From Elusimicrobiota bacterium (GTDB lineage Bacteria > Elusimicrobiota > UBA8919), in contig JAQUMH010000002.1 in NCBI GenBank assembly GCA_028718185.1, positions 4,088 through 68,087 of the forward strand: 64,000 nt of DNA, given 5' to 3'. Both the position numbers and the translations under genes were made by a program. The notes under the pieces were generated by a model. It saw only the letters and a list, made by a program, of their open reading frames with translations. It did no database searches and was not told where the DNA came from. Positions 47,192-64,000 of the stretch are shown here, one piece after another (positions within the stretch are counted from its first letter, which is position 1; each line of letters starts with the position of its first letter).

Positions 47192-50100
47192 TTATTCTAT
47201 AAGCCGTTTAAAATAATCTTTTATTATTGTTTCATATTTTTGCGGATATTTTTGTCTGAGTGATTCAATTATTGATTCCCTGAATTCTTTTGGCGGCTTA
47301 TATTCGTCGATTGAAGGTATTTTTACGAAACCTTCCCTGAACCCCGTATAACCGCCTTCTTTATTACCTCTATTCCCGCGTGTTCTAAATTTACCACCCA
47401 TCCCCATTGAACCTTTGCCCCCCATACTACTCGCCTGTCCCATTTGACTTAAAGCGCCTTCTAACCCCTCTTTACCACTTAACAAATCATTGAGCGCTTT
47501 TTTTTCAAAATCAACTGCTGACGGGTCATTGGCGTTTGAAAGTTCATCACTAGCCGAACCCATCGCTTCCTGGGACGATAAAATCTTTTTGGCAGCATCT
47601 GACGGTATGGAAAGCGTCTTGCTTAATATTCCAAGGACTTTTTTGTGCAGTAATTGTGCCTGTTTTTGATTTAATTTTTGTGTTTTTGACAGTTGATTAT
47701 GCTTTTCTAAATCGTTTTCTGTAAAAATACTTGTTTTTGGCGGTGCAAATTTCTTCAATTCATTAAGAATCTCCTGTTCAATAGTTTTGCTTGATAAAAC
47801 ATATTCAGCAGATTTTTTAATATTTACATTTTTGGATATATTTTCAAGTTCCGCTATTATTGTTATTAATAATTCATTTGACTTTTCAATTTTTTCATCG
47901 GTAAATTCCTTTAAAACAATTCCCATCTGGGTTTCAGGCTGGACATAAAGATTAAAAACAGACGGATGTGTTGTTGTGCTTTTTTCAATAATTGTTTTTG
48001 AATCGTTGAGTCTGGACATTGCCAATTTCTGTTTTTCTACAAGTTTTTTAAGCAATTCTTTTTGCAATGACAATATCTTCTTTGCCCGTTGCATGTCCAA
48101 TTCCTGAGTACTATTCAAAATCTTCCGCTGTTCTTCTACTATCTTGTCCAGGTCATTAAGCGATTCTTCTGTTTCCTTTTGAAGTTTCTGCTGTGCACTG
48201 CTTGTTGTTGAATTTGAAGAATTTTCCATTGTATTAAGGATATCGGATATTTGCTTGCTGAGTTTTTCAGCAAGCTCTATCGCTTTATCAATATTACCGG
48301 ATTGAAGAGACCACTTCATTTCATCTGCTGCCGATCTCATTTCAGTAAGATCTATTTTTTTCACATTCTCATCGTTTGCAAAATCTTCCGGTAATTTTTG
48401 CGGCATTTCTGAAACTTTTTTTGATAATTCTTCCATCAGCTTGGAAAGTTTTTCATTTGCTTCCTGAAGTTTTTTCATCTTTTCCGGATCTGAAAAATTT
48501 TTCATATCTTTAAGATTTTGTTCTATATCTGACGAAGTATCCGCCATATCTCTTACAGTGGAAAGCATATCTTCCATTTTTTGTTTTTTAGCAATATCTT
48601 CTGAAAATACACCCAGTCTTTTAAGTTCTTCTATTATTTCATCCTGTACCCGTTCCGCATTATCATATTGTTTATTAGAAAGCGAATCCTCAGCTTCGTT
48701 CATTTTCTGTTCCCCGATTGTCTTTGCCGCTTCAAGTAAATTTTTATACTCTGAATATGCATTATAATCAGTTAACGGATCGTTTGCCATTTTTTCCACT
48801 GTCTTACTGAATTCATCTGTTGCTTTATTCATTAACTCCTGTGCATTTTTCTGCATATTAGCAGCATTTTCAATATCACGTTTAGCAAGTGATGTTCTGC
48901 TCTGAAGCTGTCTGGATAATATTTCCTGCAATTTCCTATTGAAATCAGATATTTCATCTTCTATAATTTTGTGTTCCATTTCATATGACATAACCTCAAT
49001 ACTATATGTTTTTGAATTTCCGGTTAAATGAGCAGGATAAATATTATTATCTGCAACTTCAAGACGATATTGGATTACATCGCCCGGTTTCAACCCCAAA
49101 TCAGCTACTGATATTTCATAATCATCTAATATTTTCTGTGTAGGTTTTATAAATGATTTTATTTTCACCTGTTTTTTAAGCGTTAAATAGTCTATATTGA
49201 TTTCTGATATCCCGAAATCATCTTCTGCGGAATAGATAATTTTTAATTTTTCATTTTCCGAAACTATAATATCGCAGGCAGGAGCAACTATTTCAATAAC
49301 AGGCGGACTGTTTTTAGTTACGCTAACCTTGTACTTCACGGGTTGCCTGTAGATATCCCCGTCAATAGAAACTGCTTCTATCCAGTATTCAGTTTGATTT
49401 TGTATTACAAATTGGGAAGTAATTAGATTTTTAGAAATATCCATTTTATTTTTTTCATTCATATCGGTTATCAAAAATGCTTCTTTGGCTTTTTTATTTG
49501 TCTGTGCAGTGATTTTAACCGTAGTACCTACCGGCGCTTCTATATCGCTTTCTTCAACAATTTTGTCCGGTAATCCTATGTATGAAGGATATATATATTC
49601 AAGTTTTATATCAGCGATTGTAAACGGCGAAGTTATTTTCACATCATACTTATGTGATTTATTGTCCAATACTACGACATAATATTCTGTATTATCTGTT
49701 ATTTTTTCAATAGCCTCCGCATATTCGCCTTTACCTGTTTTTTTCATTTTCTTTTTATGCCATTCACTGTTAGCTTCTCTAAAATAAAGATATGGCGTTG
49801 ATTTGTCAGGTTTAACAACTGCACGAATATTCACATCACTACCAAGATTAACTGAAATATCTCCTGGCAAAACTGCAATTTCCATCGCCGAAAGAAAAGG
49901 TATTAAATATCTTTTTAATTGAAGTGAATTGAAAAATAAAGCAAAATTCACCAGGAAAATTAAAAATACAATGATAATATTTTTCAATGGTTTGAAATCT
50001 GTGAATTTTTTTAATAAATCCTTAGAAATTTTTGATGATGTGATTCTTACGAATTCTTCGGCAAATAACGATGATGTTTCGGAATATTTATTATTTTTAA

Positions 50101-62148: not shown

Positions 62149-64000
62149 ACCTTCCTCAAATTAGCTAGTATGGTTTCCAGTATGGCAAATACTAATAAAG
62201 CCCATATGAAATACTTTGTTATTTCATTCCCATATAAAATACTTTTTAAGTTCTTTTTAAGATGTGCATCTGCTGTTATAATACCTATAAACATTTTATT
62301 AACTATTTTTTTTATTTTCGATACATTCACCTTAATCAAATCCGATTCACCCGAAGACACATCTAAATTAACAGCTAAAAATTCACTCTTATTGTTTTTA
62401 TATTTAATCTCATAAACACCCGGTTCTTCAAACGCAGTGTCAATATAACCTTTAATATTTTTTCCCGAAGGTGTAATAATTCCTGATATTGTCTTCTCAC
62501 TTTTACTCAGGTATTTTTCCCCGATAACTGATGTTTGAATTAATGCTTCATCTTTTGTAATATATGTAAAAAGCTGCTTAATAATTACCGGAAATATTGG
62601 TTTAACCGGCATATCAGAATATGAAAGGTTTGATGAAACGGTAAAAACAAAAACATTATTTGTACCTTTCATTAGAAACGGGGTGTTGTCGGAGAATTTT
62701 AATATCACTTCCGACCCGTTCTTTGGAATTGATAAAAACCGTTTTGATATTATTATATTCTTTAAAATCTCGCTGTTTTGAAACGGTCCAAAATCCGATA
62801 ATTCACCGCCTGATACTACTGCCGATAATTCGCAAGGTAATAAAAAGGAAAGCGTAGTATTGTAATTTTCAATTTTTATATTATCTCCCAAAAAGAAAAC
62901 TATACTTTTTCCTTTTAAAATAAAATCGTTTAATTTAACTATACTATTTCTGCTAAAGTCCGAGATATTACATAAAAATATCATATCGTAGTTATCTATC
63001 TGTTCGTCATCAAGTTGAATATAATTTATTACTTTTGCTGAAGTATTACTTGCTAATGCTGTTTTCAAGAAAAACACCTCACCTTTAAAATCAGAAAACT
63101 GCGGATTGCCGTCAACCATTAATACTTTCGGTTTTTCATGAAAATTAAATGCAAAATAATGTTTATTATCCGGCAAAAGCTTGTCCGGTTCTAACTCCAT
63201 AAAACATTTATGGATTCCGGATGAAATATTTTTCATGCTAATTACCATCGTATCATCTTTCCGGGAAAGCGGCTCAAAAAACAGTGATTTATACTTCTTA
63301 TCATCTATATAAATATCGCCGTATATTTTTTTCTTGTTATCTGAATAATTAGATACCATAATAGAAATATCATTACCGTCATTTTTAACATCTGATACGG
63401 CAAAATTTTCCGGACTATTATCACCGATATCTATGCATATAACTTTATAATTGCCGTCTAACACATAATTTTTTTCAGACCATCCATTTTCAGAAAAATC
63501 ACTTATTAAGATTATCCGTTTCTCACTTTGCTTATTTTGGAAATATTTCGATATTTCGTTTATTGCACTTATTGTATTTGTTTTCCTGTATGTTATTTTA
63601 ACATTAGTTAATTCTGACAGGAGTATTTGTTTATCAGTTGTCGGATTTTTTACTATCGGGGAAATACTATCAGAAAAGGTGAATATTGATATTTTTTCCT
63701 CAGGTCTTAACATATCAAGAACCTGCCCGGCAACCATTTTGGCAGTTTCAAGCCGGGTCTTACCATCCTTGTAATAATCCATTGAGTAGGAATTATCTAT
63801 AAGCAGTATCGTCTCGGAATTTTCCGAAGAAGAAACATAATGCATAACAGGTCTTGCAAAAATCAGGGTAAGAATGACAATTAATAAACATCTTATTAAA
63901 AGAAGCAGGTATTGCTTAATTCTAAATATTCTTATAGTACGACTTGCGGCGAGTTTCAGAAATCTTAAATCACCAAAATTTATGTTCCTTTGTTTTTTTT
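62145..64000 (-). CDS. BatA-type protein (aerotolerance-regulator N-terminal double-TM domain plus vWA domain); 5' end beyond the window
   Basis: The frame stays open upstream of the tracked Met. Positions 63846-63998 translate to KKQRNINFGDLRFLKLAASRTIRIFRIKQYLLLLIRCLLIVILTLIFARPV, the BatA_N pattern. This is followed by LLIDNSYSMDY (vWA MIDAS). Confidence 0.65.
   Translation of the reverse strand, partial: KKQRNINFGDLRFLKLAASRTIRIFRIKQYLLLLIRCLLIVILTLIFARPVMHYVSSSENSETILLIDNSYSMDYYKDGKTRLETAKMVAGQVLDMLRPEEKISIFTFSDSISPIVKNPTTDKQILLSELTNVKITYRKTNTISAINEISKYFQNKQSEKRIILISDFSENGWSEKNYVLDGNYKVICIDIGDNSPENFAVSDVKNDGNDISIMVSNYSDNKKKIYGDIYIDDKKYKSLFFEPLSRKDDTMVISMKNISSGIHKCFMELEPDKLLPDNKHYFAFNFHEKPKVLMVDGNPQFSDFKGEVFFLKTALASNTSAKVINYIQLDDEQIDNYDMIFLCNISDFSRNSIVKLNDFILKGKSIVFFLGDNIKIENYNTTLSFLLPCELSAVVSGGELSDFGPFQNSEILKNIIISKRFLSIPKNGSEVILKFSDNTPFLMKGTNNVFVFTVSSNLSYSDMPVKPIFPVIIKQLFTYITKDEALIQTSVIGEKYLSKSEKTISGIITPSGKNIKGYIDTAFEEPGVYEIKYKNNKSEFLAVNLDVSSGESDLIKVNVSKIKKIVNKMFIGIITADAHLKKNLKSILYGNEITKYFIWALLVFAILETILANLRKV

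Follow-up and report, generated by a model that had tools for sequence, protein, structure and literature searches.

The 64,000-nt stretch of an Elusimicrobiota genome analysed here, referred to below as the window, carries a set of nine genes at positions 47192-64000, all of them on the (-) strand. In the order of transcription, these are BatA_N/vWA, DUF4159, GIY-YIG, vWA/GATase1-like, three TMEM260-like genes (paralogues a, b and c), PMT_2/TPR and DUF4175. The TMEM260-like and PMT_2 genes encode GT-C glycosyltransferases, and genes of this kind form an ancient, conserved part of the MoxR/vWA envelope operon as found in Elusimicrobiota. Their products most likely O-glycosylate proteins in the periplasm, acting with or on the complex that the operon encodes. 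With moderate confidence, we regard the gene set as the Elusimicrobiota form of the MoxR/DUF58/BatA-vWA/DUF4159/GATase1-like/DUF4175 operon, in which GT-C O-glycosyltransferases would act with or on an envelope assembly. A widespread but poorly understood envelope cluster would gain in this way a testable link to periplasmic protein glycosylation.

Gene content and conservation of the operon in Elusimicrobiota

The neighbourhood survey was seeded with an alignment of 23 GATase1-like homologues and two peptide patterns, and the best 80 of 167 matches were taken. The loci comprised 10-kb flanks on contigs representing one genome per species, and their open reading frames (ORFs) were classed with hidden Markov models (HMMs) made from the window proteins. 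The BatA-vWA/DUF4159/GATase1-like/DUF4175 set recurs in the 85 related loci. A TMEM260-like gene is found immediately after the GATase1-like gene in 32 of the 40 Elusimicrobiota species representatives with enough downstream sequence, but in none of 21 loci carrying the label of another phylum, namely Nitrospinota, Binatia, Tectomicrobia, several Desulfobacterota-type groups, Ignavibacteria, Firestonebacteria and a clade labelled 'Clostridia' (Fisher p = 3.5e-10, without correction for phylogeny). The association holds over a range of 27-62% GATase1-like identity, and in a neighbour-joining tree of the GATase1-like proteins both main clades of Elusimicrobiota are filled by GT-C-positive loci. 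In many lineages, the stop codon of the GATase1-like gene and the start codon of the TMEM260-like gene overlap or abut, while the genes flanking the cluster vary from locus to locus. The initial annotation had linked the cluster to envelope glycosylation, and it had allowed for the GT-C genes being a random, lineage-specific insertion. As these genes are conserved at the same junction across Elusimicrobiota, the functional link is supported, and the neighbourhoods do not show a random insertion. In Syntrophaceae and Desulfobacterales, the gene after the GATase1-like gene was also considered as a candidate and rejected: its sequence motifs point to a secreted hydrolase of the metallo-beta-lactamase fold, which looks unrelated to glycosylation.

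The number of TMEM260-like genes per locus ranges from one to four. A PMT_2 gene comes after them in 14 loci, and DUF4175 then follows in 11 Elusimicrobiota-labelled loci; loci with a DUF4175 orthologue after the block are L001, L005-L008, L010, L018, L025, L028, L043, L051 and L072. In many high-GC Elusimicrobia, the operon stops after one or two TMEM260-like genes and DUF4175 is absent. In many Elusimicrobiota, the link to the GATase1-like gene is tighter for the GT-C gene than for DUF4175. The GT-C genes are conserved members of the operon and are probably translationally coupled.

With regard to the window itself, the genes were assigned to families by a Pfam HMM search of its ORFs, the coordinates of which agree with the initial annotation. 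All the family assignments made there hold, and the gene cluster is confirmed: PF13709, PF07090, PF13779 and BatA-vWA occur in one gene set, with every Pfam score above its cutoff. The BatA_N + vWA membrane protein, which has a C-terminal transmembrane (TM) helix, is encoded at 62145..64000 (VWA_2, 1e-17, and a weak DUF58 match). DUF4159, with a signal-peptide-like N-terminus, is found at 61354..62148 (PF13709, 3e-36, 125 bits). The 684-aa vWA/GATase1-like membrane protein is encoded at 58754..60808 (PF07090, 28.1 bits for a cutoff of 27, together with a YtkA/MG2-like beta-sandwich). Paralogues a (56526..58787, 1e-32), b (54565..56529, 1e-34) and c (52388..54568, about 1e-33) match PF11028, the TMEM260-like family formerly named DUF2723, with 113-120 bits for a gathering cutoff of 24.2 bits; all three have TPRs, and c also has a Rossmann-like domain. 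The PMT_2-family GT-C with C-terminal TPR is encoded at 50448..52292 (PF13231, 8e-11, 42.9 bits, cutoff 26.1), and DUF4175 at 47192..50413 (PF13779, 4e-26, 91.8 bits). An NCBIfam search gave no match for DUF4159, the GATase1-like protein, DUF4175 or GIY-YIG.

The GT-C enzymes and their partner proteins

When the paralogues were compared with the PDB without their TPR domains, the only sequence match of each was human TMEM260 (c, 1e-31; a, 6e-25; b, 2e-26). In the cryo-electron microscopy study of the human enzyme, the sugar-recognition motif consists of D52 and H67, the donor loop includes R264 and Y267, mannose is contacted by R355, D441 acts as the general base that activates the acceptor Thr, and the TPR domain binds the acceptor peptide (bioRxiv 10.64898/2026.03.17.711096; PMC10214176 is a further source for the roles of these residues). 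The equivalents of D52, H67, R264 and D441 are kept in a, b and c and are invariant in the TMEM260-like proteins of the loci (68/68). The modelled TMEM260-like paralogue exhibits a multi-pass GT-C core, an extracytoplasmic Rossmann-like domain and a C-terminal TPR domain. By these features, a, b and c look like active TMEM260-type enzymes.

BLAST against the window copies separates the TMEM260-like proteins into two groups, with c-class proteins scoring 300-480 bits to c versus about 150 bits to a/b. Their order is fixed, with a/b first and c last, then PMT_2, then DUF4175, and loci with a single copy keep the c class. Positional orthologues are 60-66% identical for a and 49-58% identical for b, and the named database homologues of c, among the top 120, are all from Elusimicrobia or Endomicrobia. 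Judging from these sequences, a/b and c are two ancient paralogue classes. The residue corresponding to Y267 is Tyr in 40 of the 41 a/b-class proteins and His or Tyr in the c class, and the residue corresponding to R355 is Arg in 30 of the 41 a/b-class proteins and in 0 of the 27 c-class proteins. The R355 pattern suggests different donor sugars for the two classes. As the differences lie at donor-contacting positions, a/b and c probably differ in the sugar or in the acceptor they use, and the system may involve two steps or two sugars.

The PMT_2 protein has no sequence match in the PDB. It exhibits a YDE motif in its first extracytoplasmic loop, which is YDE in eight of the nine orthologues and FDE in the ninth. 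The TPR fusion of this protein is found only in the window and in its closest relative, L008, the other orthologues having no TPR. Elsewhere in the window, positions 1074-13952 hold a series of genes for the envelope and for sugar metabolism: divergent polysaccharide deacetylase, S41 and M23 peptidases, FtsX-like, polysaccharide pyruvyl transferase, DUF5693, UDP-glucose pyrophosphorylase, GT4, GlgE-like and GalT. A gene for a polyprenyl-phosphate sugar synthase (GT2) was not observed in the window.

Among the partner proteins, the vWA frame is open to 63998 and only the tail of the BatA_N double-TM domain is present (TIGR02226, two_anch, positions 28-78 of 82), so the gene is partial in the window, as it had been described; an internal ATG at 63845 would give 566 aa. 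Its metal ion-dependent adhesion site motif is DNSYSM, and its orthologues in relatives are BatA+VWA_2 proteins of 640-730 aa. MoxR (bpMoxR/AAA_3) and DUF58 lie directly upstream of BatA-vWA in L001, L003 and L004, the GATase1-like proteins of which are 62%, 56% and 37% identical to that of the window, while L005 (31% identical) has DUF58 directly upstream and no MoxR there. For the window's own cluster, this position falls beyond base 64000. The earlier description of the cluster as a MoxR/DUF58-associated set is borne out in these relatives. The DUF4159 gene is present in 73 of the 85 related loci. The GATase1-like protein has 311 homologues, most of them with PF07090, and the DxSxS motif of its vWA domain is invariant in the alignment of 23 homologues. 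Its AlphaFold2 model (pLDDT 83) comprises a TM segment, vWA, a beta-sandwich, the GATase1-like domain, a second beta-sandwich (YtkA/MG2-like) and a C-terminal TM segment. A Foldseek search of this model against the PDB found no full-length relative and only domain-level matches to vWA and MG/CARDB beta-sandwich domains. The N-terminal part of DUF4175 has three TM helices, and charged residues (Lys and Glu) abound in its long C-terminal region. By hydropathy and the positive-inside rule, BatA-vWA and DUF4175 are predicted to have their large domains in the periplasm, and the start of DUF4159 resembles a signal peptide. The predicted topologies of the three proteins agree with that of Borrelia BB0173, the vWA domain of which was reported to be periplasmic (PMC5700661).

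Proposed function and alternative explanations

In the mechanism that we propose, the vWA, DUF4159, GATase1-like and DUF4175 proteins would form an inner-membrane/periplasmic assembly matured by the cytoplasmic MoxR AAA+ ATPase. The GT-C enzymes would use polyprenyl-phosphate-sugar donors, with active sites facing the periplasm, and would O-glycosylate Ser/Thr residues of exported proteins, their TPR domains catching extended acceptor peptides as in human TMEM260. The a/b and c classes would probably differ in this respect in sugar or acceptor. The most likely targets would be periplasmic domains of the proteins encoded alongside them, or else clients of the assembly. The gene order thereby offers the cluster proteins as candidate acceptors for a bacterial TMEM260 homologue.

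Several observations weigh against this proposal. The survey loci share ancestry and are not phylogenetically independent, and other phyla known to have the cluster (Planctomycetes, Bacteroidota and Alphaproteobacteria) lie outside the survey. As some Elusimicrobiota loci have no GT-C genes (L011, L042, L049, L071 and a related subclade), the complex evidently can exist without adjacent GT-Cs. In the window, the position of R355 holds V in a and P in b and c, and Y267 is kept in a and b and replaced by His in c; because of these changes, mannose is not assured as the donor sugar. Finally, neither the human IPT sequon P-x5-P-x3-G-P-x2-[GA]-G-G-x2-[TS] nor its core occurs in any window ORF.

Some of these observations would also suit GT-Cs that are general periplasmic O-glycosyltransferases or housekeeping envelope enzymes, sharing the operon by inheritance and convenient co-expression. 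This is a possible explanation, which we nevertheless consider unlikely. It would account for the lineages in which the Bat-like genes persist with no GT-Cs beside them (L011, L042/L049 and L071), for the high-GC operons that end without DUF4175 and for the lack of an acceptor motif in the cluster proteins, and large Ig/Fn3-rich surface proteins encoded in the window could be the clients. However, the junction between the GATase1-like and TMEM260-like genes is kept, often with an overlap, over the whole range of identities while the flanking genes change, the paralogue order is fixed, and no further TMEM260-like copy is found elsewhere in the 64-kb window. The surface proteins in question include a 4192-aa protein (Fn3, CBM_4_9, Big_13 and FlgD_ig/CHU_C-type domains), which is followed by a 396-aa ORF without a Pfam match and a PorV-like gene (20398-35262), and a second protein of 1074 aa with a FlgD_ig C-terminus (35286-38510). 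The proteins at 20398-38510 resemble cargo of the type IX secretion system and could be glycosylation clients.

The initial annotation had proposed that the TPR domains fused to the GT-Cs take the role of BatC and BatE, that is, replace these stand-alone TPR proteins as scaffolds of the complex. The proposal is supported in part, but we find it doubtful. In its favour, the window cluster has no stand-alone TPR gene, and a TPR-bearing accessory gene does recur in the cluster: versions from other phyla encode a conserved Peptidase_MA_2 + TPR protein of about 540 aa (19 loci), the gene for which sits between DUF4175 and MoxR or downstream. Loci with this gene include L004, L013, L014, L017, L019, L021, L027, L030, L031, L035, L039, L052, L060, L064, L065 and L075, and also L026 and L072. 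The GT-C-less L071 has a giant radical-SAM + TPR gene after the GATase1-like gene, and the TPR regions weakly match Leptospira BatC in NCBIfam (27 bits for a cutoff of 175). Nevertheless, L026 and L072 hold TMEM260-like genes as well as Peptidase_MA_2 + TPR genes, so this is not a simple TPR replacement, and mutual exclusion of the two gene types is ruled out. Moreover, b-class orthologues in L008 and L010 have no TPR, the TPR motif shared by the GT-Cs at their C-termini hardly differs from the generic consensus, and the strict conservation of the catalytic residues indicates enzymes rather than mere scaffolds. A shared C-terminal TPR motif was also considered as a sign of common docking and rejected, given its closeness to the generic consensus and the lack of TPR in most PMT_2 orthologues. 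No Peptidase_MA_2 gene is present in the 64-kb window. In several phyla, DUF4175 is upstream of MoxR and not downstream.

A further alternative is that the GT-Cs modify a lipid or glycan, by ArnT-like decoration of lipid A or lipopolysaccharide or by polysaccharide extension, and remodel the envelope under stress together with the Bat-like complex. The Pfam family PMT_2, which one window gene matches, also covers ArnT-like enzymes, and the mannose-binding Arg is absent from the window paralogues. We nevertheless judge a lipid or glycan acceptor to be quite improbable: the sole PDB sequence relative is a protein O-mannosyltransferase, the equivalent of its general base D441 is invariant in 68/68 proteins, and all four enzymes have a C-terminal TPR, the peptide-binding module in TMEM260, TMTC and OGT.

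Lastly, a recent, lineage-specific insertion of the GT-C block with its own promoters would fit L011 (56% identity) and a clade at 36-38% identity, in which the GATase1-like gene is directly followed by DUF4175 after a gap of 9-13 nt, but it is contradicted for the GT-C genes and is highly improbable, as L011 is nested in the tree among GT-C-positive relatives, which makes secondary loss more parsimonious, distant Elusimicrobiota have GT-C genes at the same junction with orthologous paralogue classes, and the block has the same base composition as its neighbours and junctions that overlap by 4 nt. The close relatives without GT-C genes look like secondary losses. The gene content of loci without GT-C genes differs: L011 has the order GATase1-like, DUF4175, CpXC, whereas the position of the GT-C genes directly after the GATase1-like gene is occupied by an ORF of about 3000 aa in L042 and L049, and by a 1707-aa radical SAM protein with dozens of TPRs in L071.

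An insertion is seen only for the GIY-YIG cassette. The initial annotation had described the cluster as split open by both the GIY-YIG gene and the GT-C genes; this is appropriate for the former, while the GT-C block has long been integral to the operon in this phylum. The DUF4159 and GATase1-like genes overlap by ATGA in six of eight close relatives, which represents the empty site. In the window, a remnant ATGA is followed by a genome-specific 545-nt insert (60809..61353, - strand) holding the GIY-YIG ORF (60949-61251, 100 aa; 3e-16, 59.7 bits), a homologue of which is found in 0 of the 85 related loci. The gene is flanked by three copies of the repeat GTCATTGCGA..GAAGCAATCTC (61286-61298, 60938-60950 and 60858-60870), and this palindromic repeat also occurs at 3580-3680 as an intergenic inverted pair without a GIY-YIG gene. 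It may be a REP-like (repetitive extragenic palindromic) element linked to GIY-YIG mobility. The GIY-YIG gene thus has the appearance of a small, genome-specific cassette of a mobile type in the DUF4159/GATase1-like junction, outside the system.

With regard to the junctions, three of the overlaps reported initially are 4-nt overlaps, at 62148/62145 (ATGA, vWA-DUF4159), 56529/56526 and 54568/54565. The fourth, listed as 34 nt at 58787/58754, more likely also measures 4 nt (ATGA), paralogue a then starting at 58757, which has AGGAG in front, instead of the annotated 58787. Gaps of 102 and 140 nt surround GIY-YIG, 95 nt precede PMT_2 and 34 nt precede DUF4175; the two gaps added by the GIY-YIG insert could hold promoters. 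Two GC-rich hairpins between DUF4175 and CpXC (47141-47165 and 47053-47072) likely mark the end of the operon. Since the first has no U-tract after it, their role as terminators is an interpretation of a terminator-like scan and the sequence. A single transcription unit is plausible from the overlaps, the common strand and these hairpins. A scan for consensus promoters and terminators gave nothing above the shuffled expectation and therefore provides no argument on operon structure beyond the two hairpins. The CpXC gene (46614-47093) comes next after DUF4175 in the window, as it does in the GT-C-less L011; the operon thus has a conserved downstream border. Its GTG start at 47093 is probably upstream of the true start, given the hairpin at 47053-47072. 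Downstream of the hairpins, CpXC, cyclophilin, DUF2851 and PilT genes are found, and the remaining window is ordinary chromosome.

Coding tandem repeats and comparison with known systems

The lead most worth following is the presence of coding microsatellites in the operon. TRF, a tandem repeat finder, detected two heptamer arrays at the 5' end of DUF4159, in the signal-peptide region (GTCCGAA x4.4 at 62029-62059 and GACATTG x4.9 at 62100-62133), and octamer arrays GGGATTGT (plus strand) in all three TMEM260-like genes (54213-54283, 56182-56242 and 58432-58462). Paralogue b has a further octamer array, GAAAGCGG, at 56152-56185. The octamer arrays encode an 'IPQSHNPT' loop between TM2 and TM3 of a, b and c, which is the sole low-confidence part of the TMEM260-like model. 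The repeat 14-mer occurs 11 times in the window, only in these arrays, versus 0.03 expected. Repeats were observed in the window, L001, L006-L011, L015, L023 and L028. In eight genomes of the clade, arrays with a unit not divisible by three number 21 in TMEM260-like genes and nine in DUF4159 genes, versus none in 95.8 kb of all other coding sequence. The DUF4159 array lies at the same position in every clade genome with a differing repeat unit, and the TMEM260-like orthologues of different genomes exhibit different repeat-derived peptides at the same place. Paralogues of one genome (window, L007, L008 and L010) share the loop peptide and a near-identical N-terminal region of about 150 residues. 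As paralogues within a genome are alike despite the ancient divergence of a/b and c, this points to gene conversion over these N-terminal residues.

The 7-8-nt repeats could serve phase variation, or they could be tolerated loop insertions spread by gene conversion. Known contingency loci include Neisseria opa, with CTCTT coding repeats in the leader-peptide region, and phase-variable glycosyltransferases in Campylobacter, Haemophilus and Neisseria. The window resembles them in that repeat units not divisible by three occur in the 5' parts of surface-related genes. In contrast to such loci, the copies are few (about 4-9 of the 7-8-nt units), all repeat-bearing ORFs are in frame in every assembly, and duplicate assemblies do not differ in copy number: L001, L002 and L012 are identical, and L086 equals the window exactly. 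A Bat-like complex that is the dedicated partner or substrate of multi-paralogue TMEM260-type O-glycosylation, made phase-variable in this clade by slippage of the repeats, is a model to which we give little weight. If the copy number varies, the coding repeats would represent an on/off regulatory layer for the glycosylation system.

The combination of genes had been thought undescribed, and full-text searches of the literature found no account of it. The 2023 TMEM260 paper is the only one there to mention DUF2723, mentions of DUF4175 and DUF4159 are confined to unrelated contexts, and no paper links GT-C enzymes to Bat/MoxR clusters, or does so in Elusimicrobia. No characterised bacterial member of TMEM260/GT117 was found in the literature searched. 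The Elusimicrobium minutum genome described by Herlemann and colleagues in 2009 reportedly encodes many PMT-family glycosyltransferases.

The bat operon (batA-E of B. fragilis, Bat of Leptospira and BB0170-BB0176 of Borrelia) shares with the cluster a BatA_N double-TM + vWA protein encoded next to MoxR and DUF58, which in the present case are seen in relatives. In contrast to the bat operon, the cluster comprises DUF4159, vWA-GATase1-like, DUF4175 and four GT-Cs. As no BatB, BatC, BatD or BatE-type gene is found among the nine cluster genes or the ten downstream genes, the cluster is Bat-related but not a bat operon. A second MoxR-associated system is RL3499-RL3502 of Rhizobium leguminosarum, the membrane proteins of which presumably belong to DUF4159 and double-TM families. 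It is an operon of the MoxR-family MRP group needed for an intact envelope and for cell shape (Vanderlinde et al. 2011, cited in PMC3893208). Compared by description, both are broadly conserved membrane operons associated with MoxR, and that of Rhizobium has a cell-envelope phenotype; it differs in being an alphaproteobacterial four-gene operon without GT-C/TPR genes. Background on MoxR/vWA systems is provided in PMC3893208, PMC3557215 and PMC5700661, the latter two for the envelope-associated vWA protein.

With regard to the glycosyltransferases, TMTC1-4 (GT105), PMT/POMT (GT39) and bacterial PMT_2 enzymes are GT-Cs with lipid-phosphate sugar donors, and the TMTCs have luminal TPRs. The window PMT_2 gene, which is placed at the level of the Pfam family PMT_2, shares the Asp-Glu motif of loop 1. 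The closest parallel to a, b and c in the PDB is human TMEM260, the IPT-domain O-mannosyltransferase (CAZy GT117; 9RQL, 9RQM and 9RQN), which has the same GT-C core, Rossmann-like domain and C-terminal TPR. Unlike the human enzyme, the window paralogues are bacterial, occur as three tandem copies in a MoxR/vWA operon and have lost R355, and their donor would be a bacterial polyprenyl-phosphate sugar.

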